Shown here: piece after piece, positions 2,181 to 56,709 of the stretch
Layout: each line of letters opens with the position of its first letter
How positions within the stretch are numbered: the stretch's first letter is position 1
Assembly: GCA_963843375.1 (NCBI GenBank)
Contig: CAWJKT010000015.1
Span: forward strand, 102,396 to 166,395
Length of the DNA: 64,000 bases
Source: an uncultured Pseudomonadota bacterium
Lineage (GTDB): Bacteria; Oederibacteriota; Muellerivitia; Muellerivitales; Muellerivitaceae
Reading direction: 5' to 3'
Translations under genes and position numbers: made by a program
Notes under the pieces: model-generated
Seen by the model: the letters and a program-made list of their open reading frames with translations, nothing else
Told to the model about the DNA's origin: nothing
The model's database searches: none

Positions 2181-2990
2181 ATGCTGGCACCTTCCTCCAT
2201 TGGTTTAATCGCGGGGGAAGGAGAGTTGCCTTTTTACTTTGCGCGTCGCGCAAAAGAAAAAAGGTTTGTCCTCAAGACAGTTGCGATACGAGGTGCGGCT
2301 TCCCCTGATATTGAAAAACTAAGCGACGAAATTGTATGGTTGTCCCTTGGACAGCTGGGATCACTTCTTTCATTTTTTAAAAAACAAGGCGTCAATCGTG
2401 TTGTTATGCACGGTAAAGTTCAACACTCAAAGCTGTTCAAGAATCTGCGGTTGGATTGGAAGGCTCTTTCCGTCTGGACGCGGTTGAAGGATAGGTCCGG
2501 GGAATCTCTTTTGAAGGCAGTGGCCGGTGAATTGGAAAAAAATAAAATACAACTTTTAGATAGTCGTTATTTGATGGAAGAAACCATTGCCCAGTCTGGT
2601 TGGCTGGGAACTGGGAAAATTGATTTGGATACACGAAAGACCATTTCCTATGGACTTCAAAAAGCCAGGACTTTAGCCAAATCAGGCATCGGTCAGACGC
2701 TCGTGGTCAAACGTAGTGCGGTAGTGGCGGTAGAAGGTATGGAAGGGACAGATGAAACCATTCGCAGAAGTGGAAAGTGGGCCGGGGCAGGCTGCATTAT
2801 GGTGAAGGTCGCCAGTCCTAGGCAGGATTGGCGTTTTGATGTCCCAACCATTGGCTTGAAAACAATTCAAGTGCTAAGCGGGATCAAGGCAAAAGGGTTA
2901 GTGCTGGAAGCCGGGAAAGCTTTTCTTTTAAAAAAGGAAGAGGTTTTGGCCGTCGCAAAGAAAGCCGGATTATTTATTTTTTCGGTTTGA
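2181..2990 (+). CDS. lpxI: UDP-2,3-diacylglucosamine diphosphatase LpxI
   Basis: GLIAGEGELP, IGQT, AVEGMEGTD, QDWRFDVPTIG; directly after lpxA. Confidence 0.93.
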   Translation: MLAPSSIGLIAGEGELPFYFARRAKEKRFVLKTVAIRGAASPDIEKLSDEIVWLSLGQLGSLLSFFKKQGVNRVVMHGKVQHSKLFKNLRLDWKALSVWTRLKDRSGESLLKAVAGELEKNKIQLLDSRYLMEETIAQSGWLGTGKIDLDTRKTISYGLQKARTLAKSGIGQTLVVKRSAVVAVEGMEGTDETIRRSGKWAGAGCIMVKVASPRQDWRFDVPTIGLKTIQVLSGIKAKGLVLEAGKAFLLKKEEVLAVAKKAGLFIFSV

Positions 2991-3033
2991 TTTCAAAAAA
3001 TTCATTGAAAGATCGAATTTCAATCCCAGTTAT

Positions 3034-4122
3034 TTATCGATTCTTCCAAGCGAGCATTATCGGGACAAGCAAAGCAAAGATAACGTTCACGACCCATACG
3101 GATAGAAAAGGTGAAATGACCCCCGCTTCGCCTAAGTGCTGCCCGATTTGCATTCCCCCCAAATAGACAAAACCTACGGCCATGCTAATTAAGAAACTGG
3201 TCACAACCCCGCTGTATTTTCGCATGGTCCAACCCCATGGAACCCCCAAAATGGCCAAAATGACACATCCGAAGGGAGAAGCGAATTTATAATAGAGTTC
3301 CACTAATTCCTTGTGGCAATCAGAACCATTTCGTTTTAATTGGTTGATGTATGCCACCAACTCCGTGATGTTGAGTTCGTTGGGTTCCTTTTGTTCTTTC
3401 AAAAAGTCACTGGGCTTTTCTGGAAGGGCAAGCGGCATTTTATCAAAAGGTTGGGCGGATATTTCGGCGTCGGAGTCGTCAAAGGTTCGTAAATATCCGT
3501 CGTAAAAAACCCACTGACTGTTCTCGTATTTGGCGGCTTTTGCATCTAGGCGGGATTCCAGGTGGCTATTGGGGCCGAATTCCAAAATAAGGATGTCTGA
3601 TAAGGTGTTAGTGGTTCCGTCGAAAGCACCAATGTGATAGAGCTGGCCTCCGACGCCGATCATTGAAATGTCTTGCCGAAACTTATTGGTTTCGGTTTCG
3701 GGTTGATGCAATATTTCCACGGATTTGATCCGTCGTTTCAAAGCCTCGGCCTTAGGGACCACCAGTTCATTGAATAAAATGCTTGAGACACAAATGATTA
3801 TTCCTGATAAAAATAACGGAATGGCCACGTAATAAATATTGATTCCGCCTGCCCTCATGGCAATAAGCTCGTTTCCTTTGGAAAGCCCGCTTAAAGAAAA
3901 AAGTACCCCAAACAAGCAAGCGATAGGGATGATCTGGATAATAAAACTCGGAATATGAAAAGAAAAATATTTAAGTGTCACCAAAAAATTAGGTTTGAAT
4001 TCCATGATGAGATGCATATCGTTAAAAATTTGAACTAGGAGAAAAAGCACGCTGAATCCCGCGGTGGCCAGAAAGAAAGGTTTTAGGAACTCGTTTAAAA
4101 TATATCGAGTAAGAATTTTCAT
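3034..4122 (-). CDS. lptG: LPS export ABC transporter permease LptG
   Basis: YjgP/YjgQ-family layout, NELIAMRAGG; downstream partner of lptF. Confidence 0.88.
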   Translation of the reverse strand: MKILTRYILNEFLKPFFLATAGFSVLFLLVQIFNDMHLIMEFKPNFLVTLKYFSFHIPSFIIQIIPIACLFGVLFSLSGLSKGNELIAMRAGGINIYYVAIPLFLSGIIICVSSILFNELVVPKAEALKRRIKSVEILHQPETETNKFRQDISMIGVGGQLYHIGAFDGTTNTLSDILILEFGPNSHLESRLDAKAAKYENSQWVFYDGYLRTFDDSDAEISAQPFDKMPLALPEKPSDFLKEQKEPNELNITELVAYINQLKRNGSDCHKELVELYYKFASPFGCVILAILGVPWGWTMRKYSGVVTSFLISMAVGFVYLGGMQIGQHLGEAGVISPFLSVWVVNVIFALLVPIMLAWKNR

Positions 4123-5283
4123 CTAGGCGACGGCCTTTCGATTAAATCTTTTTTTGCGGATTGAGGAAACCCGGCGTCTAAAGGCCGAGTGTTCGGAAAT
4201 CACAATGTAATAAATCACAATACCCGCGACAGCCAAAATAATATTGGCGCCCCAAAGACCTAGAAAAGGATCGATTTTTCCATCGTTACTCAAAGTCTGG
4301 CCAAACATGAACATTAAGTAATAGGCGAAAATCATGGCCAAACCCAGGACAAATCCCATAAATCCCTTGGATCGAGTCCAAAGACCCAAAGGAGCACAAA
4401 ACCAGGTTAGCACCAAACAGGCAAATGGGAGAGCAAGGCGTTTTTGGTATTCGGTTTTAAGGTAGTTCAGTCGTCCCGGATCGGTTTCGTGTGGAATCGC
4501 GCGTTCTATTTCATGCAAGTCCATTTCCTCGTAATCTTTCTTGACGTCGGTTAGTCCAGCCAATTGATTTTCCAATTTTAATCGGATGATATAATGTTCG
4601 AAGTAAAGTTGGTTGTAAGTATGATAGTGATTGTTGTCCCAACTCATGACGCCGTTATTCAAATGGAAAAAAACTTGGTAGGATTTTTGATCGGTATCGA
4701 GTGTTCCAGTCTTGGCAAGAGTGGTTTGTACTGAAGAGTTTGAAGACCAATGGTCAAAGACTTTCACGTCTGAAAAGAGGCCGTCCGGATCCCTTCGGTC
4801 GATATAAAACTTGTGTCCCTCGAACTGGTCAATAAAAACTCTTTCTCGGATTGCGACATCCGCCTTTTTCTTGACAATGTTAAATTCAATTTTTTTGACC
4901 ATAAACTGTGCGGCCGGAAGGACTTTATCATTGAAGTAAAGCATCAGACAGGTCATAAGAAGGCCAAACAGAAGGATTGGGGAAATGAGATGAAATAGGT
5001 GGCCTCCACCACTTTTGAAAGCCGTGACTTCCATGTCAGAACTTAATCTTCCGAAAGCAAGAAGGGTTCCTACCATCATGGCCATAGGAATGGTCAGCGA
5101 GAGTATCAAGGGCAGAAGGCTGACGTAGAGGAGTAAGGTCTCGGAAATAGAGACCTTTTTATTGAGGACCAAATCCAGGGACAAGAAAATTTTGTTGATC
5201 ATAAAAAGAAAAGTCAAAATAGCGACGCATAAAAGAAAAGACGGCAACATTTCCATGAGAACGTAGCGATAAATAGTTTTCAT
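4123..5283 (-). CDS. lptF: LPS export ABC transporter permease LptF
   Basis: GRLSSDMEVTAFKSGG, EYQKRLALPFACL; YjgP/YjgQ family. Confidence 0.88.
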   Translation of the reverse strand: MKTIYRYVLMEMLPSFLLCVAILTFLFMINKIFLSLDLVLNKKVSISETLLLYVSLLPLILSLTIPMAMMVGTLLAFGRLSSDMEVTAFKSGGGHLFHLISPILLFGLLMTCLMLYFNDKVLPAAQFMVKKIEFNIVKKKADVAIRERVFIDQFEGHKFYIDRRDPDGLFSDVKVFDHWSSNSSVQTTLAKTGTLDTDQKSYQVFFHLNNGVMSWDNNHYHTYNQLYFEHYIIRLKLENQLAGLTDVKKDYEEMDLHEIERAIPHETDPGRLNYLKTEYQKRLALPFACLVLTWFCAPLGLWTRSKGFMGFVLGLAMIFAYYLMFMFGQTLSNDGKIDPFLGLWGANIILAVAGIVIYYIVISEHSAFRRRVSSIRKKRFNRKAVA

Positions 5284-5411
5284 TCAAATCCTGAGCAATT
5301 CATGCCCTCTGGCGCCCGGAATAGGCCGAAGGTTTAATGTGCCTAGCCTTCAATTAAATTGATTTTCGGCATGTGATCGAAGACAAGGGGCAGACAAGGT
5401 GAATCGCCGTC

Positions 5412-5420
5412 AGTATAACA
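5412..5420 (-). promoter_or_regulatory. Extended -10 promoter for lptFG
   Basis: TG-T-TATACT on the minus strand ~125 nt upstream of the lptF ATG. Confidence 0.55.
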
Positions 5421-5511
5421 TAGGGTTTTCGCCCTTTTAGGTCCCTTTTCCGTCCATTCGAGAGTTCTCCGAACCATTCACAACCAAGATGAGATATTTT
5501 TACTTTAGGGC

Positions 5512-5604
5512 ATCAGCCCTCATCTTCCGGATTCACCCGGTGATGGAAGGGCTGATATTGGGCAACGTCCGGGCCGATTGAAAGATTGGCCCGGCGTTAT
5601 TTTT
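5512..5604 (+). ncRNA. Candidate two-hairpin small RNA or leader ending in a terminator-like stem
   Basis: Stem 5512-5520/5548-5556; stem 5569-5579/5584-5594 with GAAA tetraloop then ATTTTT; TACTTT -10 at 5501-5506. Confidence 0.4.
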
Positions 5605-5642
5605 AAAAGCGTCTCATCCTCCAAAAACAATAAGGAAATGGA

Positions 5643-6929
5643 ATGGAAAAGGTCAAAAATAGCCCATGGAACTTTCCGAGAATTGATATCATTTCAAAAG
5701 ATGTTTCTTTTCCGGGTAAGATATCCCGTTTTTCGACCCAAGATGCCGGAAACCTCATCAATCGGAAAGAATGGACCATGAACAAAGCATGGAAAAAAAT
5801 ATTTTTACTAGATTTTGAGAAATCTTTTTTTTCTTCTTGCGGAAAATTGCTTCTTATTTGGAATCCTCTTTGGACTTTGATTGTGACCATTGCTTTAGGA
5901 AACCATTCCCTTACTTCAATCCTTTTTAGGTGGGGCTGGAATTTTTTGGAAGCCTCACTCGTTTGCTTCATGGGGCTCGCGGTGATACGGGTTTATCTTT
6001 TGGTTGAAAATATTTGGGCTATTAAATCCTCAAAAAATCAACCCCGCCACGGGACAGGCTGGTACATGTTTTTCCTGGCCTTCCTGGCGCCACCTGGATT
6101 GTTTATAGCGGTTCGATTAATGGTTGCCGGAATAAATTATTTTTATGCCGGTGCGCCGATCGCTCCAAGCTTTCAATGGGAATATTACGGAACGGAAATA
6201 TTTTGGGTTTGGGCGCTTTTGCTGGTTTGCTTTTTGTTTATGTCTTGGCAGGATTTGCGCGATTCGGTCCAAAGAAATCAACTTCGAGCGGAGGAACTGG
6301 AAAAAGAGAGGCTTCATGCCTTATTAACCAAGTTAAAAGACCAAATGAACCCGCATTTTCTTTTTAATACTTTGAACACGGTGGCATCCTTAATCCCGGC
6401 GGATCCTGCCAAAGCGGAGCAAGTGGTGATTAAGCTTTCCACTCTTTTTCAAGGCGTTTTAACTGCCACAAGAAGAACCCACCACCCACTGGAAAAGGAA
6501 TTGGAGTTTTGTCGTGACTATCTTGATATAGAAAAAGTCCGTTTTGGATCGCGCTTGGAGTCCCATATTCATGTTGAAAAGGATTTGGATCCGGCGAGAG
6601 TTCTTATCCCGGTTTTGTTGCTTCAACCATTAGTTGAGAATTCTGTCAAACACGGTCTTTCATCCCGGGCGACGGGAGGTCACCTTTGGATCAACGCGTG
6701 CTTGGCCAACGGTAATATGAAATTGAGTGTGGAGGATGATGGAGTCGGTTTTGGAAATTCCCCCTATTCGGGTTCAGGAACAGCTTTGGAAAATTGTAGA
6801 AAAAGGTTGGAGTTGGGTTTTGGAAAAGACGGGAAAATGGAGATTGTCCCTAGGGATAACGGGGGAACAAGAGTGACATTGATTTTACCGGTAATGAACG
6901 TTGATCTTTCGGATGAGGTGGAAAAATGA
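5643..6929 (+). CDS. LytS/YehU-family membrane sensor histidine kinase (alternative start 5778)
   Basis: About four TM segments, QMNPHFLFNTLN H-box, LLQPLVENSVKHG, VEDDGVG. Confidence 0.92.
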   Translation: MEKVKNSPWNFPRIDIISKDVSFPGKISRFSTQDAGNLINRKEWTMNKAWKKIFLLDFEKSFFSSCGKLLLIWNPLWTLIVTIALGNHSLTSILFRWGWNFLEASLVCFMGLAVIRVYLLVENIWAIKSSKNQPRHGTGWYMFFLAFLAPPGLFIAVRLMVAGINYFYAGAPIAPSFQWEYYGTEIFWVWALLLVCFLFMSWQDLRDSVQRNQLRAEELEKERLHALLTKLKDQMNPHFLFNTLNTVASLIPADPAKAEQVVIKLSTLFQGVLTATRRTHHPLEKELEFCRDYLDIEKVRFGSRLESHIHVEKDLDPARVLIPVLLLQPLVENSVKHGLSSRATGGHLWINACLANGNMKLSVEDDGVGFGNSPYSGSGTALENCRKRLELGFGKDGKMEIVPRDNGGTRVTLILPVMNVDLSDEVEK

Positions 6930-7675
6930 TCAAGGTTATGATCGTGGACGATGAAACCCCGGCGCGTACGCGCCTCGCTAGAATGCTCTCCACTTTCAAA
7001 GATATTGAAGTTGTTTCTGAGGCCTCCAACGGATTGGAGGCTTTGCAGATTGCCGAAAATCTAAAACCGGACTTGGCTTTTCTTGATATTGAAATGCCCG
7101 AACTTAATGGTTTGGAAGTGGCAGAAGCTTGGGGGGGAGGAGGCCCGATGGTGGTTTTTGTAACGGCTTATAGTGAGCATGCTTTGAAGGCCTTTGAACT
7201 TTCGGCGTTGGATTATTTGGTAAAACCCGTTTCCACGGAAAGGCTGACCGAAACAATTGAACGGATAAGAAAAAGAAAAAATCCAACCCCATTGGGGAAC
7301 ATTCAGAAGTTTCTTGAGAAATTGGAAGAGGGAAGAGTGAAACGGCGAATGGCGGTCAAATGTGGGGCTAAGTACCGTGTTTTCGACCCAGCCCAAGTTT
7401 CAGCCGTGATCGCACGGGATCATTACGCTGTTATTTTGCTGGAAGGGCAAGAACTTTTGGCGGATGACAGTCTAGATACTTTGGCTCAAAGGCTGGACTC
7501 CGGACGTTTCTTGCGGATTCACCGCAGCGCCATTATCAATCTGGATTTTCTTAAAGAATTGGAACACGAAGGCGACCGAAAATATCTGGCGATTTTATCT
7601 GACGCAGTCAAAACACGTTTGCCTGTCAGCCGAGAACGATTGGACGAATTGAAAAAAGTATTGAACTTGGATTGA
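6926..7675 (+). CDS. LytTR-family response regulator
   Basis: Receiver VDDE..FLDIEMP..FVTAY..DYLVKP plus LytTR FLRIHRSAIIN; ATGA overlap with the kinase. Confidence 0.95.
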   Translation: MIKVMIVDDETPARTRLARMLSTFKDIEVVSEASNGLEALQIAENLKPDLAFLDIEMPELNGLEVAEAWGGGGPMVVFVTAYSEHALKAFELSALDYLVKPVSTERLTETIERIRKRKNPTPLGNIQKFLEKLEEGRVKRRMAVKCGAKYRVFDPAQVSAVIARDHYAVILLEGQELLADDSLDTLAQRLDSGRFLRIHRSAIINLDFLKELEHEGDRKYLAILSDAVKTRLPVSRERLDELKKVLNLD

Positions 7676-7784: not shown

Positions 7785-10700
7785 ATGTGGTTTTCCAACA
7801 TATACTTCTATGCAATAACCACAATTAAAAGCCTCCGGCTATTATTCGCTTTTTTTCTGCTGGTTTTGACGGCTAAGGGACTTGAGGCTCAAACAGCGGG
7901 TGTAACAAATTCTTCGGGTTCCGTAACGGCAATTCAAAGCGCTTCGGCCCCTGCTACCGATTTGTCCGTTAGTCCACAGGAAGAAATCCAAATTTTGGAC
8001 GCTATCGAGGCCCAATCGAATACCATTTCGGCTGGTTCTACTGCCCAAGGAACCACGGTTTCCACAAATAACCAAGGCCAATCCATTGCGGGCCTTAACT
8101 CCAATTCTTCTTCAGTTTCGGTTTCTTCTCCGACTCCTATTGCGATGAGTTATGCTCCGCCATCCGAACCCACGGGATTGAGTTTCTTGATTCTGAAAGA
8201 AGGCATTTATCTCTCTTGGGCGGCAGCTTCGGCTAATTCAGCTGTCACGGCATATAATGTTTTCCGTTCCACAACCCCTGGGTTTGGATATAAAAAGGTT
8301 AATCTAACGCCATTGACTGCGCCTTATTTTCTGGATGGCGCCCAAAACAGCCTTTCACCCCCCCATAATGGGGAAGACTATTTTTACGTCATTACTTCCA
8401 ACGATTCCCAAGGCAATATCAGTCCTTATTCCGACGAAATAGCGGTAACGCCCGAAGGCATGGAGATACCTGAAACGGAGGAGGAAAAAGAGGCTCGGAA
8501 ACCCAAATCGAAGCCAACGCCCGAGGCTGAAAAGGTTCTTAATATACCGGATAAAATTAATATACAACTTCCTGCCGACACCTCACTTGCCATTCAGGGA
8601 TACAAAAAAGTAGACATCCTTATGGCTTTCCAGGATTTCGACCGCCCAGCAATCAATGGAGTTTTACCGGAAGTGAACACGACCACCGTCAATCAAGAAT
8701 TAGTCGTGACTTTGCAGGGAAAAGTGGGGAAAAACGTCGACGTGAACGTTGATTACAGCGATGTCAACCGGGCAGGGGGCGTGGACCAGACTAAGCAGGA
8801 TATTTCTATCAAGTACCACGGGGACACAGATAGCGCTATCCAGGAGGTGGACTTCGGAGATCTACAACTTGTATTGCCTAACACGGAATTTGCGGGTTTC
8901 AGCAAAGAGTTGTTCGGCCTCGAGGCCAAAGTCAAAGTCGACCAACTCAACCTGACCACCTTTTTCGCTCAAACAAAGGGTATCTCTGAAACGAAAGTCT
9001 TCCAGGGGAACGCTACCCAAAACGACATGTATATCCAGGATATAAGTTATGTTCCTTATAAATACTTCCTAATGACTCGAGATTACAAGGCCTATACCGA
9101 TCCGACGTCAGGACAAACGGTAAATGGGGCCGGGCCGCAAAATAGCACGGAACAGATTTGGGTGGACCCGGGAACCGGAGTGATTAATCCTCTTGGACCC
9201 AATTTCAATGGGCTTTTCGAGCATTGGCTACCGGGCCGGGATTACACGGTTGATTATTCAACCGGTATTATTACCTTCATTCGAGGGTTATCCCAATCCT
9301 CCCGGATCGCGGTATGTTTCCAAAGAAAATATGACGGGGCTTACATCGGGTTTGCCCCTGGTTCTACCACAACCATTGATCTCTCAAGCGCCAGTTTGTA
9401 TGTGCCGGATGATGGAATTGTGGGAAGGATTCCCCCGCCACCAATTGATCCTGGAAAAACGGTTGAGGGACATTTAATTAAAGATAACAACAACAGTACA
9501 GGAGGAACCTCCGCTACAGCTGTCGCCCTGAGCCCCAACTATCTGGTGAATTACTTTAATTTGGGAACCAACAAAATCACTCCCCCTCAAGAGGATCCCA
9601 ATTTCATGTTCCAAGTCATTTCTCAGGGCACCAATAACGTCTTACAAACGGGACAAGGGGTCACGGCAGTGGGGGCCACTAATCCCTGGGTATACACCGT
9701 GAATTTGGATTTTAACTATCTGACGGTCACTAATTCGAACTTTTACATAGCCCCTGGAACCATTCCCCCGGTGCCGAATGCTGCCACCTCCTTCCTTTGG
9801 CCTGAACGGCCTTTCGCCAATTTGGATACGACCGGCGGTTCCAGTTCAAGCAACACCCCCACGGACGTTTATGACCAGACCACAAGTCCAACCAGCCTCT
9901 ATTCGATTCACATCCGATATAAAACCCAATTAAATTTCTACCAGATGGGTCGCTTCAATATCATTCGTGGAAGCGAGTCGGTTTATCTCGACGGTCGCAA
10001 ACTGCAAAGAGACGTGGATTACACTTTCGATTACACCTCGGGATTTCTGGATTTTGTCAACAAGAGCATCCTGACGCCCGCCAGTCAGGTTGTCGTTACC
10101 TATGAATACGCTCCCTTTGGTACTTTCAGCGCCGATAACATCCTAGGAGCCCGGGCCGAATATGACGTTAACGACCATTTTTTTATTGGGTCCACTTTTC
10201 TGGAAAGTGACGCTCAACAACCTATTGATGTCCCGCAAATCGGTTCCACACCTGATTCCCTAACTCTCTTCGATGCGGATGCGAAATTAGATCTTTTGTC
10301 GGAGGATGTTCAATCTATTACCGGCATTATTCCGGGTTTGGAAAGCTGGAAGCCGCCTCTGACCATCAAACTATCCGGAGAAATCGCCCAAAGTTTTTAC
10401 AATCCCGATACTTTCAGCGCGGAAGGAGAAAACGGCGTGGCGATGGTGGATAACATGGAAGGCATCGACAGCGTTTCGGGACCATCCATGAATCAAACAA
10501 GCTGGTTGGTCTCATCTGCGCCACAGCCTGTTTTCACGTTCCTCCCGGGTTTGGTACCGGTTGCAGCTTCGGGTCCAAGCAATAACCGAACCCGGTTTTA
10601 TAACGCGGGCGACGTCTAATCCCACCATGACCATTTTCCAGACGATTGGGACCACAAATGCGGTTGGCGGCACATATCAAAATTTCCCGAGTGTTCCTGC

Positions 10701-13700
10701 CTACGGGGGAGAAACCTACGCCAATACCCAGCAGGCGAACGACGCGGTCGCTGTTCTCCAATTTCCCTATACGAATTTAACCAACCAGAAGTGGGCCGGT
10801 CTGAGGTCGGTCATTTCCGCCAATGGAACCGATTATTCGAACGTCACCTTTTTGCAATCTTGGATTTATAACGACGGCAATCCGAAATGGGTCATGGTGG
10901 ATTTTGGGGTGATTAATGAGGATTCAAATGGTAATGGGGTGTTGGATTTTGATCCGGGAATGACGGCGGTTCCGCAAGTTGCGGCTAATCCGAATTATGG
11001 AATTCCCACATTTTATTTTCAGGGTAACCCTTGGACCGGAAGCGATACAACGCCATTCGCTTCTCTTTTTGGGGGTGAGACCACTTCACAAGAGGGAGTC
11101 AGCGTTGGAAACGGCACCAGTTATGTGACGGAAAACATGGATGGCACTGGAATATTAAACACCAGCGATGCTTACTATGAATATGGTTTCCAAGTCAATT
11201 GGACAGGTTGGAAACAAGTAAAGGTACCTGTGAGTTACACCTCGGCAGACAATATGACCACCACTCCGGACGGGACCACTTATTTTTTCCATACGCAGGG
11301 CTCTGCCAATCCGACCATTATCCGATCGGTGAGGGTTTGGACCACGGGGGAAAGTTCAACCCCGATCAGCGGCGATTTTTACATGCAAAATATCAGTTTC
11401 AGCCACAACCTTTGGGTGTTGTCCGTGGACCCGACGGTAAATGCAAATGAGGGCATCACCGTTAATACCTCGAAGTTCGACGTGAATTCCATCAGCCAGA
11501 ACCAGAATTCGAATTACGTACCCACTTTGCGTTTCATTACCGTTCAGGCGGGTCAGGACCAATCGGCCCTTCTATACCAGGAAAAATCTTTGGAGCTCAC
11601 TTATAACCTATCCAATGCGGATATTTATAACGGCCTTCCCGCTTATTACGCCACCCGGAGTTTCAATCCGGGGCTGGATTTCACCAATTACGATGATATC
11701 CGGATGGATCTTTACATGCTTTCTTACCAGCCCGGGGAAGTCCTCTTCGTCAGGATCGGGAACGACCAAGCGGACTATTACCAATACAACATACAATTGG
11801 ATGCTGCGGCCGTCAGTTGTTTGGACAATTGGGGGACCGTTGACCTGCCTATAAATGGTTCGGGAGGAAACCGGCTACAGGTGGGAACACCTTACATTAA
11901 CCGCGCCACCCAAGTCAGCTTTGGTATTCTTTCACCAAACGCCCCCGCGGCGGGGCACACGGGGGATCTTTGGATCAACAACCTCAGGGTCGCTAATGCC
12001 AACGTGCGAAGCGGTGTTGCCAGGCGTGTTGATGCGGCTTTTGTTTTTGGAAAAAACTTTGCCACCATCAATACCCGTTATCGGGAAGTGGACTCGGGTT
12101 TCACCGAAATCGACCAAACCTCCACCCACTTCCAGCATTCCACCCAATGGGGCGCGGATTTTACATCAAGCGGCGTAACCCTATTTTCCCAACCTTTGGT
12201 CACCCAAGCCTCGCTCACCAGGCAGGACCTCTATACCGAGGCCGCCTTACTGGACAACCCTTACTATATTAATCTTCCGGATAGCCTTATTGACAATTTC
12301 ACCGGAAGCATCAGTTACACCAAAGATCTCGGCCCCAGTTTAGGGAGATTGACCGCCGTGCGTCTTTCCGGAAGCACCAACTATGAGACGGATGTCTATG
12401 AGGAAGCCTATCTCAGCCAGCCAGGTGTGCAGGGCAATACACAAAAGGGAGAGGCAATCGAAACCTTGGCCTCCACCTATGACGCTCCGAAAAAATTATT
12501 TTTTATCTCCTTGGGTGCGAACCAATTCACGGAAAGCTACAGTTTAACCCACGATACCCAGGAATTTGATAACACCTCCTTTGCTCCTTATGACCGGCTT
12601 ACCCGGTCTCAAAATTATTCATGGACGAACACCACGGAATTGTTGAAAAATCTCGTCTTTACCCCCGGTTATACTTTGACCTTGGTGGACGCGACGGGAA
12701 ATACCAATTCACCCGGCGTTCCCGGCAGTGTTCTCGGGCTATACCCCTTTCAATCAGCGGTACCAGCCCAAGTTGGGTTTGGTTTATCGGGGCATACCGG
12801 GAATGATTCCCGCGGTGGATTTTACCGGTAGCAACCAGTACGATTATGTTTCCTATCCGGACGGAACCCGGTTCAACAACGCCAATAACCTGAATTATTC
12901 CCTCAACCTGACGCCGGGCAGCTGGTTTTCCTTGTTCCAGAAAATGAACCTGACGATATTTGGCGGGATCACCGAAAGCGGTACAGCCGCTATTCCGGAT
13001 ATTGCCAGGATCAGCACCCCTGAATTTTCGGCATCGATGGTCTGACCAGCCCTGTATTGCCCCTCAATGGTTTTAACCCTTTTGACTTGCCTTAACCGGC
13101 AACCAGTCCATAGCCCATCAATTGAACGCCAGTTTCCGGCTTTTCGACGTCTGGGATTTCCGGCCTACGGGTTCCTGGACCGACCAGTTAAGTCTTTTGT
13201 CCCAGGGCACCTACCCCGTCAAACAGGATGGAGAAACACTTGGGGTTGACGACCATTTACAACAAAAAGATATTTACCCTTCCTTTCGTGAATTTCTCAC
13301 TTAACTCCGCCCAATTTCAATATACCCATACGGGCACCATCCAATACGACAGCTCGGTTGCACCCGTTTCGCTGACATCGCTAATATTTCCAACGATACC
13401 ACGAGCGATACCTATGGGATCACCTTGCCTTATGACATCAATAAAAAAGCCCAGGGCACCATCAAATTCCAACGCACCGTCGGTTACTCAGGATGGATTG
13501 TCCACCACCGATATTCCCACTTATCAATTGGATGACCAGGCTTCCATCGAATATGACCAGAAATTCGCGCCCAATGGAATCATCCATATTCCTTTCACTC
13601 ATTTGAAGATCAAACTTCAGGACGCCATCGAATTACAAGCGATCTTCCTCATGGAGTTAATCAATAACCAATCGACCTACATTTACAACAAGTCCAATCC

Positions 13701-13855
13701 CAAAGGTACCGTGCTACAATTAATCTCAATTATAACGCCCTCAAGAATTTACGAGTCGGAATCGGCTTGGTGAATGAGTATTTCACAAATGACCTAAATT
13801 CCCAGTTGAGTTATACCTTGTGGCAGGTGACGTTTCCGCGGAAGCGCGGTTTTGA
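7785..13855 (+). CDS. sprA: SprA/Sov-like giant outer-membrane beta-barrel (T9SS translocon homologue), split by indels
   Basis: Signal peptide; LQGKVGKNVDVNVDY, IQEVDFGDLQLVLP..LFGL, GSESVYLDGRKLQRDVDYTFDYTSG, MVDNMEG, DFGVINED, TENMDGTGILNTSDAYYEY, GDLWINNLRV in SprA order; ends VSAEARF* at 13855; pieces 7785-10619, 10561-12831, 12728-13045, 13122-13304, 13228-13773. Confidence 0.8.
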
Positions 13856-13972
13856 GGATTGTGGCCGTTAAAATGATCGGAGCTATTTTGAGATCACCTT
13901 GAGACTTCTCCATCTTGTGGCGTTAAAATTCATTATGAAGATGCGTTATTAAAGAGGCGAGGAGACACTGAT

Positions 13973-16900
13973 TTGAAAGTTAGTTTTTTTAGGCGACAAG
14001 CATGGATGTTTTCGATGTTCTTGCTCATCTTCATCCAATCGGTTCCGTGCCCGTATCGGCTCAGGCCCCAGCGCCTAGCGGTTTAAGTGTTTTGCCGCCT
14101 TATGACGGTCAGGTGAACCTGGCAATGGACACCGGATATTTCCGAAACCCCAGCTGAAACGGCTTACGCGGTTTCCCGGGAATTGGTGAATTTGACCTGC
14201 TACCCCGACCCCCACATCCACCGGACCCATCACACCAATCCTTACTTGTACACCCTATTGCGACAGTACTTTTATCTGCTATGCCTTCATCGCGGGAACT
14301 CCTGTTTACCAGGATTTCCAGGTTACCAACGGCCGTTTTTACCTTTACCAAGTGCAGGGAATGGACGTAAATGGCCCAGGGACCGCGGCGCTGTGACTAT
14401 GGCACCCTTATCTTGCCCCCGCAGCCGTCCAACCTGTGAGCGTCTTGAACATCCACTCAAACGCCTTGGATCTTTTTTGGGGAGTACCAGTTTCCAGTTT
14501 TCCTGTTTCTTTTTACCAGGTATACCGGTACGAATATATTGCCACAACAGCCATGCCGACGCCCACATTCACCAACAGTCCCACGATAACACCAACTATA
14601 ACTTCGACCCCTACTGGAACATGGAACACCTCAACGGCAACTTCCACTCCGACGCCCTTTACACCTACTCCCACAGCAACCACCGCATTTTCCACAACAC
14701 CTCCCGTTTCCGTGGCCACGATTTTAACTAACGCGACTCCAGTAGCGACCGTCTTCGGAACGACCTACAGTGACCTATTTTCCTACCCCCACCGGAGCAG
14801 AGGCCTACTATTACGTTGTAATGGCGGTTGATAGCGACACACCAGGAAATTTAAGCGCCCAGCCGACGCTTCCTTCCAATCCTGCATTGCCTCAAAACAT
14901 GGCGCCGCCGGGCCCCGATAGCCTTACGGGAGCTACTCTCCACCACTTCCTATGGGGTAAGTCTTTCCTGGACGGGATCGTTGTCATCGGAGCAGGTAAC
15001 GGCTTATCAGGTTTTGCAGAACGGTGTAACTTTGGCGACGATTCCATATTCAAATTTGGCACCGTAACCTATTTTGACAATACGGTTCCGGGGACAGGTT
15101 TACCGGTTACTTATATAGTACAAGCGACAAACAACTTTGGGACGACGCCTTCCAATTCTATCTTTGTAACCGTCGTGGAGTGCAATGAAGGGAGGGATTC
15201 AAGTAACCCCTAACGCGACCACGAACTGCCGTGACCATAACCTGGCAACCGGCCACGGCCGGAATTTATGGATTGGGGGTTATCAGGTTTATAAGAGCCT
15301 ATATGGGGTACCGACCGCCAATTCAACCCCACGTTTCGGGGGAGACTGCGACTCCGACGCCTTTTTATGCCGTCACCTTTAACCCCACAGTTGGTTTTAC
15401 GATCACTCCCGTAATTGATTCACCGATAATAAACCATATGAATTATTGGGTCCAACCGATGGATTCGAGCGGGCACGGAGGAGTGGTGGGAGTGGCTTTT
15501 CCGCCCGCTTTGAACTTGGCGCCAACGCCACCCTCCAATGTGGGTGCCGCAGCTCCCGTGGGAAATGATCAGATTGCTGTTTCCTGGACGGCGGGTGCTC
15601 CTGGATTTTATGGGTCCACGCAGAATAACGTGATATTTCGGTTGAACTTTACCACGCCAACTCCAACTCCCCGATTTATCGCCAAGGTGCCAGCCAGCCA
15701 GCTTAGCTATAATGACATTGCCCCAGAATTGACGCCAGGCACTCTCATCGGCTATCAAGTCGAGCTGTCCGACGCGTTAGGAAACACCTCCGATGCGTCC
15801 CTTTCGTCCAATGGAGTTAATACTTCCGCATTAACGAATCCTCCGGCCACACCCCGGGTATTACCCTTTACAGGAACTGTCAACTCAATTGTCTTTTCTT
15901 GGGCCAATAATCCCCGAGCCGATTGCGTGACCAATTACCAGGTTTATGGTTTCGATTGGCTTACTCCGGTACCCCTTACTCCGACACCCGTTTTGGTTGT
16001 GCCGGTTACAGGTTCTCCCACCTTCGTTTTTACTTTTGCTCCTACACCAACCCCCTGGGCCCCCAATGATTATTATCTTGTTGCTCAAAATAGCATTGGC
16101 AATAGCCAGCCAGCGACCATGAATGGTATCCCGGTGCCAACCTACAATGTCACGGCCGTAATTCCAACTGGAACCCAGCAAGTTTCGGTCAGTTGGAACC
16201 TGGTTCCGGCGCTAACGGTCACTCCTGTAATTGATTCTTATGGAGTCTACCGATCCCTGACACCGGACGCGAAATTTACATCCATTGCGACTGTTCCAAT
16301 TTCAAGCACTAGTTATTTGGATGTACCTCCCATCGCCACTGCTGGGGTAACTTATTATTATCGGATCACAGCAAGGTCGGGCCAGTCGGCGGAAAGTCCA
16401 ATTCTTTTCCCAACGATGACGCCCGATCCACAAGCAAGCCTGTTGATTTGGCCCAATGCGCCTTCGGGAGTAACGGCCTTGTCATCCTCGTATAATCAAA
16501 CGACTCTTTATTGGGCGGGGAACGCCAGCCAGGAAGGGGTGACGGGTTATTCAATTTATCTGGACGGATCACCAACACCGGTTGCCACAGTTGCGGCGTA
16601 TTTAAGTCCTTCCCCAACTGTTTCTTATATTGCCCAGGAAACCCCAGGAAATCTTTCTTATTACAGTGTCCAGGCCAATAATCCCTCAGGGGGCAGTAAT
16701 TTATCCCAATCGGTAAGTGTCTTGGTGCCTCCTGCCATAACGCCCGGCATAAACTTAACACCGCCGCTTTACGTGTCCCCAACTCCCAACCAAACTCCTG
16801 CATTTTCACCAGGGGTTTGGATTACGGGTATGAACTATTTCCCTTCGATGACCCCCACATGGGTTACGGGTTATTCCATTTACAGATTAAGCGTTCCTAC

Positions 16901-18644
16901 CCCCAGCACCACACCCACGTTTGTTTCGGTGGGTTCAGTCGCGGCTCCCGTTTCCTATTTTGAGGACACCGGTTTTGTTCCCGGATATGTAAATTATTAT
17001 CAAGTCGTGGCAAGTAACACGGGATTAGGGATCAGCGCAAATCCGGCTGTTTCGGCCCAATTAGGGGTCACCCTTTGGCCCGAACCACCCAATTTTACAT
17101 TTACAGGGAACGCCACATCGGTAACCCTGTCCTTTGCCACCCCAACGGGCAATAACGTTGCGATATCGGGGTATGACATCTACCGCAGCCTTTATCCAAC
17201 CACTACTCCCAACCCAACCCCTTATGCTCAAATCACTCCGCCCATTTCGACTTATTCGGATTCGGGAGTCAGCACGGGGACGGCTTATATTTATTGGATG
17301 GATGCTCAAAACTCCCAGGGGAATAGCGGTTATTCCGCGCCACAAAGTTTTATTCCTGTTCCGGTGCCGACCCTGTACCTGACTCCGCTTCCTGAACGAA
17401 ATCAGCTTTTTTGGGCTCCCATAACGGTGGCAACGGCAAGTCCCGTGACCGGATATGCCGTTTACCGTGCGGCCGTTCCGACACCAAGCTTGACACCGAA
17501 TTTCGCTCAAATAGGCTCGATCGTGGAGCCTATTTCTAATACTAATTATGTTGATACGACTGTCACCGATGGGGTTTCTTATATTTACGAGATCGCCCCC
17601 AGTTCACAAAATAATATGCTTGGTCCCTTTTCAAATACCGTTACCCAATATGTTTATCCCCAACCGGTGACCAACTTCATCGCCGTTTCGGGGGATGATT
17701 TGGTCCAACTGCGGTGGGCTTACCAGGGAATCGCCAGCAATACGGTTTACATCCAGCGGAAGTTGGGGCCGGCCCCTGGATCTACTTTCCAAACCATCAC
17801 AACTGGATATCAGGGCGTGAATTTCACGGATACAGGTGTTGTCGACAAAAACTTTTATATTTACCATATTTATTCCGTGGATGCCCTGGGACTGACCTCA
17901 ACTTCTTATGCGTCGGCTATTGCTTTGCCGGCAAAGCCACCAATACTCCAAATTCCCTCGGGTGCGACCGGGCCGCCAGTGACATTGACCCAGAACGCAA
18001 GCAACGCGCAAACTTTGATTGGAAATACACTCTCCTGGGGAGGGGCCGATCTAACGGGCTTCGACCCGACCACCATGTATCCATTGGGGGGATACTCTAT
18101 TTCAAGGTCATCGGATGGTGGAGGGGTTTATCAAAACATTGCCATCGTTCCGGTTACTTTTGTGAACGGACTCCCCACGGCTGCCGCAAATTACTTCGAT
18201 CAGGTTCCTTTGATCAATGGTTCGGCTTATACTTATTTAGTCCAAGCCTTTGACAATCCTCCTAACCTTCCGGTAGGGTTTTCCGAAGCCGTGACGGAGG
18301 GGTTGGTCCACCTCAGTACTTACAATCCAGTGACGGGTTTCCCCATTAGTCCCAATACAGCGTTGGACCGAAACGCAATCCATCCCACAATCGCTAATGA
18401 AAATTCCGTAAATATCCGTTTTATAGTCACCACTCCTGGCAACGTGACGATCAAGGTCTACACCTTGGACGGGACTTTCGTTATGCAACTAGTGAATCAG
18501 TATTATTCCCAGCCAGGTATTTTTTGGACAAATTGGAACGCCCACAATATGTTCGGAAACCTTGTGGCGTCAGGGGTTTATCTCATTACCACGGAATCTC
18601 CAGGTGGGCATCAGGAATTTGAAAAAGTAGCGGTTATCAAATAA
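13973..18644 (+). CDS. Large secreted fibronectin type III repeat, Pro/Thr-rich protein with C-terminal FlgD-Ig/T9SS-like domain (5' third split by indels)
   Basis: GAGGAG RBS, TTG at 13973, hydrophobic signal, repeated Fn3 motifs (VSW..YxVYR..YxD..YYY); ends IKVYTLDG..WNAHNMFGNLVASGVYLI..KVAVIK*. Confidence 0.8.
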
Positions 18645-18855: not shown

Positions 18856-19933
<1,078 letters not shown>

Positions 19934-22591: not shown

Positions 22592-23345
<754 letters not shown>

Positions 23346-27047: not shown

Positions 27048-28110
27048 TCAGATGGGATGAAGCCCGCGGCGGGTTAGCCCGGTCGTTTCATCTAAACCGA
27101 ACATGAGGTTCATGTTTTGAACCCCCACATGGGCTCCACCCTTGCCTATGCTATCCAATACGCTGAAAACCACGATCCGCCCCCGGTTTTCATCCACATC
27201 CAGTCCAATGAAACAGAAATTTGTTCCGGAAACGCTGTTTACCCACGGATAAGGTTTGTATTGCCAGGAGGCGCCTTCTTCTTTGGGCAAATCGTAAAAT
27301 TTCACGAAATACTCGTTTTTATAAAATTCCTTATAAAGTTCTATTAGTTGCTTACGGGTTACTTTGTGTTTTGGGAAAGCATGGCAGATATCCAAAATCC
27401 CCCGAACTATAGGGACATAGATTGGAGTAAAGCCAATTTTCACTTTTTTCTTAGTCTTAGAAAGAAGGCTCAATTCCTGTTCCGCTTCAAAGGTATGACG
27501 GTGTCCTGTTACGTTGTAGGGAATCAAATTATTGCCAATTTCAGCATGGTGCGCGGGCCGAGATAGGTCCGCCCCGATACCTGCAGTTCCGGAAAGTCCA
27601 TCCACCGCAATTTTATCCGTGTCAATAAGATTGGCTTTGACGAGCGGAGCCAAACCCAAAATTGCGGCGGAAGCAAAGCAACCGGGGTTGGCGATTACAC
27701 GGGCATTTTTAATTTCATCGCGGTGTAATTCGGAAATCCCATAAACAGCTTCCTTGGCCAGGTTCCAACTTTTGTGTTTTTTATTGTAAACTTTTTCCCA
27801 AGTAGGGCGGTCGCTCAGGCGGAAATCCGCGCCCTAAGTCGATAACCTTAGCGCCTTCTTTTAAGAATTTGGGTGCTAATTCCATTGGGACACCGGTTGG
27901 AAGGGCCATGAAAACGACATCGCAAGGAGTGGTTTGTTCAGGACGAATGAACTGAATTCCGGTACCAAATAAATTTGGATGGTAATCGGCGACTTGAGCT
28001 TCGCTGCGGCTGGTAGCCCAGGCGATTTCTACTTCGGGATGATCCATGAGCACGCGCAAAACTTCGCCACCCATATATCCTGTGGCGCCATAAATTCCGG
28101 CTCGAATCAT
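27048..28110 (-). CDS. argC: N-acetyl-gamma-glutamyl-phosphate reductase family (ArgC/LysY), frameshift ~27833
   Basis: GATGYMG, HPNL, VIDLG-ADFR, IANPGC, QNMNLMFG; RBS GAGGA. Confidence 0.85.
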
Positions 28111-29279: not shown

Positions 29280-30320
29280 ATGGCGATTACCATTAAGGAT
29301 GTTGCTCAAAAAGCCGGAGTGTCCGTCGCGACCGTTTCTCGAGTCGTGAATCAAAAAGATATCCATAAGGTAGGCGTAAAGACTCAACAAAGAATCGAAA
29401 GAATTTTAAAAGAACTTGGATATTACCCGAATAGCATGGCCCGGGGCCTTAAAACCCGAAAGACTTTTAACATTGGAGTGGTTTTCTTTTGGTATGAAAA
29501 GCCGTCTTTAACCGATTTCTATTTGACCCGTGTTCTCGACGGTGTGATCAGTTATATCAGTGAGAAGCGTTACAACATCCTAATGAATACTTTTAGTCGG
29601 CAAGTTCAAAATGAAGGAATTTACGCCAGCTTTGTAAATTCAGGTCTTGTGGATGGAGTTCTCGCAATCGCCCCACCCGTTGAATCTCGGTTTTTTCAAG
29701 ATCTTAAGCAAGGGGCTTTGCCTTATGTTTTAGTGAATTATCAAGTCAATGACCCGGATGTTTGCTTTGTGGATTGTTTGAATACCCAGGGAATTATCGA
29801 TGTGGTTGATCATCTTGTTTCTTTGGATCATAAACACATTGGTTTTATTGCCGGGGATATCCAATATTCGAAAAATTCACTAGATCGCTTTAATGCCTTT
29901 AAATATATCCTCAAAAAACGAAATCTTCCTTTTCATGAGGAGCATGTTTATTTCGGTAATTGGACTGAACAAGCAGGCGCCAAGGCGGTTGAGGCCTTTT
30001 GGAAAACCAAACATCCTCCAACAGCCATAATCGGCTCCAGCGATATCATGGCTTTAGGAGCGATCCGGCAACTGCGAAAGCAAGGTTTAAGAGTTCCGCA
30101 GGATGTTGCCGTTGTCGGGTTTGATGATATTTCCAATGACAATAATTTAACCACAGTCCATCAACCGGCTTTTGATATGGGTTATGAGGCCGCCAAGATG
30201 CTTTGGAACCAAATCGAAAAAAGGCCGTTGGAATATACACACAGGTTTTTCCCAACTAAATTGGTAGTACGTGAAAGTTGTGGTTATTATTTAAAAAATT
30301 CCCACGATCAAAAAAGCTAA
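29280..30320 (+). CDS. LacI-family transcriptional regulator
   Basis: TIKDVAQKAGVSVATVSRV, YYPNSMARGL, VPQDVAVVGFDD. Confidence 0.96.
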   Translation: MAITIKDVAQKAGVSVATVSRVVNQKDIHKVGVKTQQRIERILKELGYYPNSMARGLKTRKTFNIGVVFFWYEKPSLTDFYLTRVLDGVISYISEKRYNILMNTFSRQVQNEGIYASFVNSGLVDGVLAIAPPVESRFFQDLKQGALPYVLVNYQVNDPDVCFVDCLNTQGIIDVVDHLVSLDHKHIGFIAGDIQYSKNSLDRFNAFKYILKKRNLPFHEEHVYFGNWTEQAGAKAVEAFWKTKHPPTAIIGSSDIMALGAIRQLRKQGLRVPQDVAVVGFDDISNDNNLTTVHQPAFDMGYEAAKMLWNQIEKRPLEYTHRFFPTKLVVRESCGYYLKNSHDQKS

Positions 30321-30332
30321 AAAGCGCTTTTT
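30319..30332. promoter_or_regulatory. Putative LacI-family operator
   Basis: Perfect palindrome AAAAAGCGCTTTTT with central CG, between lacI and the glycoside hydrolase. Confidence 0.5.
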
Positions 30333-30436
30333 GTTTCTCTTTACAACAACTCGCTGAAAAGGCGTTGAAGGCCCTTGGGAATGATGTTATAAATGCCTGC
30401 CGATCGAATCCGTTCTGCAAAAAGGAAAAATTCAGT

Positions 30437-37697: not shown

Positions 37698-39688
37698 ATG
37701 CTCTTCGAACTTACATCCAATTTCAAACCCACCGGGGACCAGCCCCAAGCCATAGAAAAGCTCACTCGGAACATTGAAAAAGAGATCGCTCACCAAACCC
37801 TTTTAGGGGTAACGGGGTCGGGAAAAACCTTCACGATGGCCCAGGTCATCCAGAAACTCCAACGGCCAGCCCTTATCGTTTCGCATAACAAAACCCTTGC
37901 GGCGCAGCTTTACAGCGAATTCAAGGATTTTTTCCCCAAAAATGCCGTGGCCTATTTCGTGAGTTATTACGACTATTATCAGCCTGAGGCTTATATTCCC
38001 CACACAGACACATTCATTGAGAAGGACGCTTCGATCAACATGGAATTGGATCGTCTCCGGTTGGAGGCCACGGCTCTTCTGCAGGAAAGGCGGGACGTCA
38101 TTATTGTGGCCTCGGTTTCGTGTATTTATGGACTGGGGTCACCGGAAAACTACAAGTCGATGCACTTGGTGATTCGGGAAGGACAGGAAACCCCGCGGGA
38201 AAAATTACTGAAGGAACTGGTCGAAATCCAATATGCGCGCAATGACATTGATTTCAGCCGCGGCAAGTTCCGGGTGAAAGGGGACGTGGTTGAGGTTTAC
38301 CCGGCCTACGAAGAGAACCCATTCCGAATCGAATTTTTCGGGGACGAGGTGGAAAAAATATCTGAGATTGATCCGGTGACCGGAAAGGCCCTCAACCGCA
38401 GAACGGTATTTCCGATTTATCCGGCCAAACATTATGTCATGCCCGAATCCGTCATCAAGCGGTCCATCGGTGACATCCGGGACGAACTTCGGGAGCGGCT
38501 CCAGGAACTGAAAAAAGCCGAAAAACTGGTGGAAGCCCAGCGGCTGGAACAGCGCACCATGTTCGACCTGGAAATGATCGAGGAAATGGGCTATTGCCAG
38601 GGCATTGAGAATTACAGCCGTCATTTTGAGGGTCGTAAACCGGGGGAACCTCCCTATACTCTTTTGGACTATTTCCCCAAGGATTTCATCACTTTTATCG
38701 ACGAGTCCCATGTGACCCTGCCCCAGCTTCACGGGATGTTCAACGGGGATTATGCCCGCAAAAAGAACCTTGGTGGATTTTGGCTTTCGGTCTGAAATGC
38801 GCTTTCGACAACCGGCCCCTGAAATTCGAGGAATTGCAAGAAAGAATAGACCAGGTCATTTACGTTTCCGCTACACCTTCCAAAGAAGAGCTGAAGTACT
38901 CGAACGGTGAAATGATCGAGCAAATTATCCGTCCTACTGGATTGATGGACCCTGAAATCGAGGTGAGGCCCGCCGTGACCCAGGTGGACGACCTCATAGG
39001 TGAAATCCGAGAAAAGGTCAAAAAACAACAGCGGGTATTGGTCACCACCCTCACGAAGAAGATGTCGGAGGATTTGACCAATTACTTGAAGCAAATCAAC
39101 GTCAAGGTGGCCTATCTTCATTCGGATGTCGAAACCTTGGACCGGATCAGGATCATCCGGGATCTCCGGCTGGGGGTTTACGACGTTTTGGTGGGGGTAA
39201 ATTTGCTAAGGGAGGGCTTGGACCTGCCCGAAGTCAGCTTGGTCGCGATCATGGACGCGGATAAAGAAGGGTTTTTGCGCTCGGAGGTATCCTTGATGCA
39301 GACCGCCGGGCGCGCCGCCCGGAACGTGGAAGGGAAAGTCATTTTTTACGCCGATAAGGAGACCGAATCCATGCGGAAAACCCTTGTGGAAACAAAACGC
39401 CGGAGAACAGTGCAAAATGAGTACAACAAAAAACATGGGATCACTCCCGCCACTGTAAAAAAACAAATTCGGGAAATATTGACGACTGTTTATGAGGCCG
39501 ACTATTACACCATTCCTGTATCCGCTGAAGAAGGGGAGACCTACTTGGTACCCGAAGCTATTCCCCGCAAAATCGTGGCTTTAGAAAAAGAAATGGTCGA
39601 ATACGCCCAAAAATATGAGTATGAAAAGGCCGCCGAATTGAGGGACGAGATCCGAAAGTTGAGGGAACGGATCAAAAGTCCAAACTAA
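37698..39688 (+). CDS. uvrB: Excinuclease ABC subunit B (frameshifts ~38770-38790)
   Basis: [42 protein letters not shown]-terminal UVR domain. Confidence 0.98.
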
Positions 39689-47224: not shown

Positions 47225-47340
47225 AAATGGTGAGGTGGATTAAAAACTTCATGAAACTGAATATGTGGTTAATCAAGAGCCGTTGACAAGATTCGACGGC
47301 ACTTTATATGATGGATAAATAGTAATCGGAAGGCGAATGG

Positions 47341-50664: not shown

Positions 50665-50761
50665 TTTTTAGTTCTTGCTGAATCTAAGTTTTTTTGGTGG
50701 CGTTATTTGTCGGTATAAGTGGATGAACTCAAGCCGAATTTCCATGGGACAAAGGGGAATT

Positions 50762-56535: not shown

Positions 56536-56709
56536 CCTTTGGGCACCCCGATTACTTAGGATGAAATTGAGGTGATTTTAAAGAGAGTCCCATGAAATCA
56601 TTCGAAGGAAAAATCTAATTAATCACCGGAGCGGGTTAAGGTTTCAGACAAACCACCGCCTTTCCGCCAATTGATGGGGTTATTTGGCTAGATAGTTAAG
56701 GAGATTTAA

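Follow-up and report, generated by a model that had tools for sequence, protein, structure and literature searches.

Can the outer-membrane pore of a type IX secretion system (T9SS) serve a bacterium in which the motor of that system is not recognisable? The question is raised by a locus in a 64,000-nucleotide stretch of DNA from an uncultured bacterium (assembly GCA_963843375.1, contig CAWJKT010000015.1; the whole stretch is referred to here as the window), where a long, fragmented gene resembling those for the SprA/Sov translocon is followed on the same strand by a gene for a secreted protein with a candidate T9SS C-terminal domain (CTD). The product of the first gene is a divergent yet true SprA-family barrel. 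In the explanation that we consider probable, this gene is genuine and functional in nature and lies in one operon with the CTD cargo gene, and SprA, PorV-family barrels and about 80 CTD cargo proteins together form a phylum-wide, reduced type-9-like export system without recognisable GldK, GldL, GldM or GldN. Positions are those of the window unless a contig is named, and its features are collected in Table 1.

The host phylum was judged to be candidate phylum FCPU426 ("Ca. Luxamiota"), a name taken from the titles of its relatives' records. FCPU426 is on NCBI's list of candidate phyla. In Pallen 2024, in the part concerned with this phylum, 'Ca. Luxamiota' is the name for GTDB phylum FCPU426, and its genomes, from soil and groundwater, measure 2.2-4.1 Mb with 47-57% GC, values with which the window's genome agrees. 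The window's genome comprises 4.05 Mb in 32 contigs and is 80% complete with 4% contamination. Comparisons drew on 99 genomes of the phylum, 60 of which are of high quality (>=90% complete, <=5% contaminated), and some models were run on 46 or 61 of the genomes instead. Of 31 window genes, 13 have a Shine-Dalgarno-like word upstream, the background being 0.135. This distinguishes the host from Bacteroidota with a T9SS and bears out what an earlier note, made from the letters of the DNA alone, had said of its ribosome-binding sites.

A SprA-family barrel in nine frame segments

The SprA-like gene is about 2020 codons long and is spread in the assembly over nine frame segments, in the order 3, 1, 2, 3, 1, 3, 1, 3, 2. 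By tblastn and inspection of the three frames, the frame changes number eight or more, with seven falling within the last 1.2 kb; the coding sequence closes with '...GDVSAEARF' at 13852, and its stop codon is TGA at 13853-13855. The earlier note had stitched five open reading frame (ORF) pieces into a signal-peptide protein of about 2000 amino acids (aa) ending in Phe. Its fragmentation, length and final residue hold; its number of pieces does not. The N-terminus, MWFSNIYFYAITTIKSLRLLFAFFLLVLTAKGLEAQT, is hydrophobic with 'LEA-QT' and resembles a signal peptide as judged by eye. Full-length homologues were recovered from 25 loci of the host phylum, with lengths of 1697-2190 aa, open frames at all 25 loci and an invariant C-terminal Phe (25/25). 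Intact copies in relatives include one of 2028 aa in a metagenome-assembled genome of the same genus (G054) and others of 1968 and 1969 aa elsewhere. The window's own genome has a single SprA locus in a six-frame search of its contigs.

Family membership was assessed with TIGR04189 ('T9SS outer membrane translocon Sov/SprA'), an NCBIfam equivalog with a curated cut-off of 200 bits. The first piece of the gene (7785-10619, 944 aa) scored 198.3 bits (E 1.4e-58). Three stretches of the model matched the window collinearly (model positions 95-262 at 8574-9092, 579-789 at 9888-10526, and 1389-1483 at 11869-12150), in keeping with the earlier description of SprA motifs in SprA order. Frame errors prevent a whole-protein score for the window's copy. 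An intact orthologue from the same genus (P0001, 2028 aa, 82% identical), which covers positions 7785-13826 by tblastn, exceeded the cut-off with 226.6 bits in four stretches. A profile was then made from the 25 full-length homologues, which represent 19 of the 23 family codes of the phylum. It matched SprA of Flavobacterium johnsoniae (6H3I_A) with E 2.2e-49 and 170.9 bits, profile positions 474-1245 corresponding to residues 424-1406 of the chain. Positions ~77-250 of the same alignment matched fn3 domains of titin and fibronectin, and from these positions an extra N-terminal fn3 domain was placed approximately in the window. P0001 gave nothing in Pfam at E 0.01. The best clusters in the ESM Atlas reached 0.87 only, with SprA_N on 12-20% of their members, and are a lead only. 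In clustering by blastp neighbours, the SprA-like protein and the protein encoded downstream of it group together.

The C-terminal 1190 residues were modelled with AlphaFold (AF2), giving a predicted local distance difference test score (pLDDT) of 78.9; the model was built from an alignment of this C-terminal part, where sequence similarity is weakest. Foldseek placed four SprA structures at the top (8GL8, 8GL6, 6H3J and 6H3I; E 3.8e-34 to 3.0e-29, TM-score relative to the query [TMq] 0.51-0.55), and the next-best match had E 5e-6. The structural alignment comprises 1055 residues, sets model positions 14-1190 against SprA 820-2401, and is collinear to the C-terminus. The earlier note had named the lack of a match to SprA by hidden Markov model (HMM) or structure as a refutation; both kinds of match were obtained.

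The frame breaks in the SprA-like gene and in the cargo gene are assembly errors and not biology, because the orthologues are intact, housekeeping genes in the window are split too, and contigs assembled from public reads carry indels at these places. The comparison used Logan contigs from four public runs of three studies, runs that contain 8-9% of the sampled words. The contigs are identical to the window over long flanking stretches, such as 7860-8563 and 16268-18111 (0 differences), and consistently carry indels at 14037, 14121, 14202, 14256, 14290, 14390, 14410, 14777, 14914 and 14933. A lone gap within 10330-10700 falls where the first frame change of the SprA-like gene lies, and over 11963-14409 one contig departs from the window by 167 letters and 22 gaps. 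The region ~11960-15200 as a whole shows many substitutions plus indels in the contigs of all four runs, with flanks 100% identical, and looks like a low-quality or strain-mixed patch. The assembly is indel-rich throughout, and the genes for GAPDH, triose-phosphate isomerase, argC, uvrB, uvrC and phosphoenolpyruvate (PEP) synthase are split or truncated.

Tagged cargo, carrier barrels and the search for other parts

The gene behind SprA begins with TTG at 13973, preceded by GAGGAG, and encodes a signal-peptide protein with fn3 repeats and Pro/Thr linkers. Alignment by tblastn with an intact orthologue revealed at least five frame changes between 13973 and 15228. Orthologues behind SprA in relatives are 1545-1635 aa long. 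The C-terminal end reads '...ASGVYLITTESPGGHQEFEKVAVIK', and the tail of the genes in this position is strikingly conserved (WDGxNxxGxxVASGVYLI..E..KVAVIK). Across the phylum, a CTD-bearing gene stands directly behind SprA on the same strand at 19 of 25 loci. The CTD of the window's cargo scored 22.4 bits against the PorZ model NF052228, at its C-terminal positions 695-757 of 757, and the domain match ends four residues before the stop codon. Its predicted structure is a seven-strand beta-sandwich (pLDDT 93.6). Foldseek also returned FlgD Ig-like domains for it and ranked generic Ig-like domains equally, and the modelled fold is consistent with a T9SS CTD and not diagnostic of one.

The same kind of domain recurs in the window's genome. 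Forty-five matches to the type A CTD model TIGR04183 were found, 22 of them over the cut-off, and all end 2-26 residues from a stop codon. An HMM built from these 45 CTDs, on which the cargo orthologues score 40-69 bits, recovered 82 six-frame segments with the domain <=30 residues from the stop, and none in which it was internal only. The domain is common to 82 C-terminal frames and is therefore the tag of a large secretome; a domain not shared by other secreted proteins would, by the earlier note, have been a refutation.

SprA itself was found with TIGR04189 in 92 of 99 phylum genomes and in 58 of the 60 high-quality ones, with 7 of the 99 over the cut-off in the six-frame search. PorV (Pfam PF19572) was detected in all 61 genomes searched, with 1-13 matches per genome, and passed the cut-off in 48; counted over the high-quality genomes, 60 of 60 have PorV-family barrels. 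The window's genome has 13 PorV-like loci. Two pass the Pfam cut-off (32.8 and 29.9 bits vs 27), and the NCBIfam PorV model NF033710 gave only 64.9 bits vs its cut-off of 250; the remainder are barrels of a PorV/UPF0164/FadL-like kind, many of which carry TPR or fn3 domains at the C-terminus. A CTD gene adjoins ten of the 13 barrel genes, and in nine cases the barrel gene lies directly downstream on the same strand. Pairs of a CTD gene and its own PorV-like barrel gene lie, among others, at C15:31545-35145, C12:8157-11188, C16:26440-28154, C4:266024-272118 and C28:13434-17812 (contig:positions in the window's genome). A stand-alone PorV (locus L048) has orthologues with 57-81% identity within the family and ~30-38% across the phylum, and it is taken to be the general PorV. 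LptF/G-type permease, LptD_N and uvrA genes neighbour it and its orthologue.

The earlier note saw no porK, porL, porM, porN or porV in the window, and scans of 43 ORFs against NCBIfam and 14 against Pfam likewise found no T9SS motor or PorV gene among the other ORFs there. Across the phylum, GldM was absent from 99 genomes with TIGR03517 and from 46 with PF12081 (GldM_1st). GldL (TIGR03513) was not found over its cut-off in any of 99, five of which had matches at chance level (E 7e-4 to 7e-3, best 6.9e-4). GldN (TIGR03523) was absent from 61 genomes, and none of 46 had GldK (TIGR03525) over its 350-bit cut-off, the best match reaching 86 bits through the generic FGE-sulfatase half only. Peptidase_C25 (PorU type, PF01364) was missing from the 17 genomes of the window's family, and from the window's genome and G054; among the 60 high-quality genomes it occurs in eight, in families f6, f8, f9, f15 and f23. 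The full PorU model NF033707 matched through its own CTD part only. In the five genomes searched for them, neither the type B CTD (TIGR04131) nor PorP/SprF (TIGR03519) was found over cut-off. By the Bacteroidota definition of a complete T9SS, PorV is thus present in the phylum and motor, ring and, in the window's family, sortase were not found. The earlier note had suggested a reduced T9SS-like system outside the Bacteroidota, with an FCB lineage that has an ordinary complete T9SS as the finding that would overturn it. These searches agree with the suggestion: SprA, PorV and CTDs are kept, and no Gld component was detected over its cut-off.

Two further observations concern these searches. PorU-type C25 genes (frames of 883-1508 aa; loci L061-L064 of genomes G032, G033, G027 and G098) are patchy in a phylum that keeps SprA. 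GldK-like matches on contigs C4 and C29 of the window's genome were rejected as generic FGE-sulfatase proteins without gldLMN neighbours. C4 (564 kb) has a GC content of 56% vs ~50% for the bin and many overlapping ORFs at ~502-520 kb. Its FGE-sulfatase match has no counterpart in G054 at E 1e-10, and the contig may be contamination or an accessory region.

Competing explanations for a pore without a recognised motor

In F. johnsoniae, according to the part of PMC10994853 that describes the translocon, the 36-strand SprA barrel has a lateral opening at which PorV docks; the CTD binds loops of PorV as well as the cavity of SprA, and 'energetic input forces PorV away', the motor being GldLM. By analogy, we infer CTD-PorV-SprA binding and transport in the window's host as well. 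Cargo would cross the inner membrane through Sec; in the SprA pore its CTD would bind to loops of a PorV-type barrel at the lateral opening, and cargo and barrel would then exit together, CTD first. Release would be either unpowered or driven by something unrecognised. With no sortase to detach it, the cargo probably remains on the surface, held by the PorV-like barrel, and such retention may explain why cargo and barrel genes are paired.

Several results weigh against this explanation. The P0001 sequence gave 0 matches in a single-sequence phmmer search of the PDB, and a profile was required instead. The CTD of the window's cargo reached 21.9 bits against TIGR04183 (E 5e-4, at 18402-18629), under the 23-bit cut-off, and had no match to Pfam Por_Secre_tail (PF18962) or FlgD_ig at E 0.01. 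The top Foldseek match of its model was a domain of streptococcal C5a peptidase, with PorZ (5M11) at rank 2 and PorU (6ZA2) at rank 5. The energy step of a motor-less pore is unexplained, since substrate release in F. johnsoniae needs the motor (PMC10994853, same part). The window's genome is only 80% complete. The searches for parts did not extend to SprE/PorW, SprT/PorT, SkpA, PorD or Plug, for which no search was made. Finally, the 14 control genomes all lack a T9SS, and with no positive control behind them the Gld negatives leave room for a very divergent or non-homologous motor.

That last point is central to the alternative of a fully powered T9SS, whose GldL, GldM, GldK and GldN would be too divergent for HMMs trained on Bacteroidota or would have been replaced, for example by a stator of the ExbBD, TolQR or MotAB type. 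Besides the missing control, the need for energy at substrate release in F. johnsoniae (PMC10994853, as above) speaks for it, as does the divergence of SprA itself, which escaped phmmer and passes the TIGR04189 cut-off in only seven genomes. However, none of the five Gld models produced a credible match in 46 to 99 genomes, whereas six-frame profile searches of the same genomes did detect divergent SprA, PorV, CTD and C25. Nor is any stator-like gene (ExbBD, TolQR or Mot-like) conserved beside SprA at the 25 loci or beside the PorV orthologue. A powered system of this kind is judged unlikely.

It is more doubtful still that the SprA-like barrel does other work, such as outer-membrane or lipopolysaccharide (LPS) biogenesis or the uptake of large substrates, with the CTDs serving to anchor at the surface proteins whose export takes a different path. 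The gene neighbourhood lends this idea some substance, as lptFG stands beside SprA, upstream of it, at 15 of 25 loci and genes of LptF/G type and LptD_N adjoin the PorV orthologue; the CTD has a generic fold, and neither motor nor sortase was found. The lpt neighbourhood, however, is ordinary housekeeping synteny (lpxC-fabZ-lpxA-lpxI). The same-strand CTD gene at most SprA loci, the phylum-wide co-occurrence of SprA, PorV and CTD, and a barrel that follows SprA over 1055 residues to the C-terminus all argue for export, and the alternative is considered improbable. Finally, a decaying pseudogene remnant or Bacteroidota contaminant DNA, suggested by 13 or more frame changes within 11 kb and the 4% contamination of the bin, is scarcely credible given that short-read contigs of three studies show indels where the frames break and match the window elsewhere, that housekeeping genes are equally broken, and that the orthologues are intact and syntenic at 25 loci of the phylum.

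Surroundings of the locus and relation to known systems

A LytS-type sensor kinase gene and a LytTR-type regulator gene precede SprA. They overlap by 4 bases, and the second stops 110 bases before SprA. Only the window's family has this pair directly in front of SprA (8 of 25 loci); comF lies downstream of SprA in 12. In the window, lptFG occupies 3034-5283 on the minus strand, and at the PorV orthologue locus L085 LptF/G-type and LptD_N genes lie at 2649-5959 and 8983-9957, which may be no more than housekeeping synteny or may point to a connection with LPS export. Farther away, a sensor kinase and a sigma-54 response regulator are followed by ORFs of 325, 363 and 314 aa without a Pfam or NCBIfam family (42056-48285). 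A 1040-aa protein with CBM9 and CarboxypepD_reg domains is encoded behind a LacI regulator (30278-33400), and a gene of the GH94 cellobiose/chitobiose phosphorylase type lies at 50675-53101. The CBM9 and GH94 genes hint at a polysaccharide-degrading lifestyle.

Table 1. Features of the window, with positions, strand and the evidence for each
Feature	Position	Strand	Evidence
LytS-type sensor histidine kinase	5643..6929	+	Pfam His_kinase PF06580 (85.5 bits) and HATPase_c
LytTR-type response regulator	6926..7675	+	NCBIfam BtsR/LytR-type matches; orthologue with Response_reg and LytTR
SprA/Sov-family outer-membrane translocon gene	7785..13855	+	Profiles, intact orthologue, model
Additional fn3 domain near the N-terminus of the SprA-like protein	8180..8480 (approximate, inferred from profile positions)	+	Titin and fibronectin matches
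Secreted fn3-repeat protein with C-terminal sorting domain, conserved partner/cargo of SprA	13973..18644	+	Maps to residues 17-1545 of orthologue P0002; fn3 PF00041
Cargo CTD (last 110 residues), type-A T9SS CTD kind, motif WNAHNMFGNLVASGVYLI...KVAVIK	18312..18641	+	TIGR04183, PorZ model, structure model
Split or truncated housekeeping genes	18859-19933, 22592-23182, 27048-27659, 37698-39688, 39999-41350, ~56700-58900		

The window's SprA shares with SprA of F. johnsoniae and Sov of Porphyromonas gingivalis the NCBIfam family, the giant-barrel fold over the C-terminal ~1050 residues, a putative signal peptide, the terminal Phe and the company of PorV-family barrels and CTD cargo. SprA forms a complex with PorV, and also with Plug and PPI, and takes up substrate CTDs in its pore. 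Unlike F. johnsoniae SprA, it has ~2020 rather than 2403 residues and carries the additional fn3 domain near its N-terminus, and the two are 13-17% identical in structural alignments. It also differs from SprA/Sov in its genomic setting: its operon includes a gene for a CTD protein, the LytS/LytTR pair precedes it in the window's family, and no GldKLMN was detected in the phylum. The Bacteroidota T9SS combines a proton-driven GldLM/PorLM motor, a GldKN/PorKN ring, SprA, PorV, an attachment complex of PorU and PorZ, in which PorU is the C25-type sortase that cuts off the CTD, and CTDs of types A and B. At the level of the system, the pore, the carrier barrel, the type-A-like CTD and a large CTD secretome (82 frames) resemble the Bacteroidota T9SS, whereas no motor or ring was detected, the window's family has no C25 sortase, and type B CTDs and PorP/SprF stayed below cut-off in the five genomes searched. 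Flavobacterium pairs of the SprB-SprF type combine a cargo gene with a gene for a PorP-family barrel. The 10 of 13 PorV-like loci with an adjacent cargo gene repeat this arrangement of cargo and dedicated barrel, but with a type-A-like tag and with PorV/FadL/UPF0164-like barrels, often extended by C-terminal TPR or fn3 domains, in place of PorP/SprF.

In the portions of the literature that were available, the T9SS is placed in the Bacteroidota by PMC4793230, PMC7906972 and PMC10994853, and in the superphylum of Fibrobacterota, Chlorobiota and Bacteroidota (FCB) by PMC11205867 and PMC12398890. The core given for Bacteroidota, for example in the TXSScan model, consists of GldK/L/M/N and SprA (PMC4793230, in the portion on that model). 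Reviews and surveys among PMC4793230, PMC11205867, PMC10994853 and PMC7906972 attribute, in the same portions, the power for releasing cargo from SprA to the GldLM motor. A literature search returned no account of GldKLMN-free SprA systems outside FCB, nor of a T9SS in FCPU426. The annotation as SprA is not new, because NCBI's own model would give the intact protein that name; the motor-less pattern at the level of the system is, as far as searched, new to print.

The probable reading, a reduced export system without a recognisable motor, admits a broader proposal, which we put forward tentatively and with the balance tilting somewhat against it. SprA, a PorV-type barrel and a CTD tag could be a self-sufficient, ancient export core found in many diderm phyla outside FCB, to which the motor, linked to gliding and high-throughput release, would have been added later. 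In FCPU426, this core would be tied to one conserved fn3-CTD surface fibre encoded behind SprA, with cargo tethered to dedicated PorV-like barrels rather than processed by a sortase. SprA, PorV and tagged proteins by the dozen are retained in a phylum that shows no motor or ring, and mostly no sortase, which raises the question of what, if anything, powers the pore. Structural and reconstitution work would also gain a natural system of simpler make-up. In uncultured soil phyla, the system is likely the main route by which large surface proteins and enzymes are placed on the cell.

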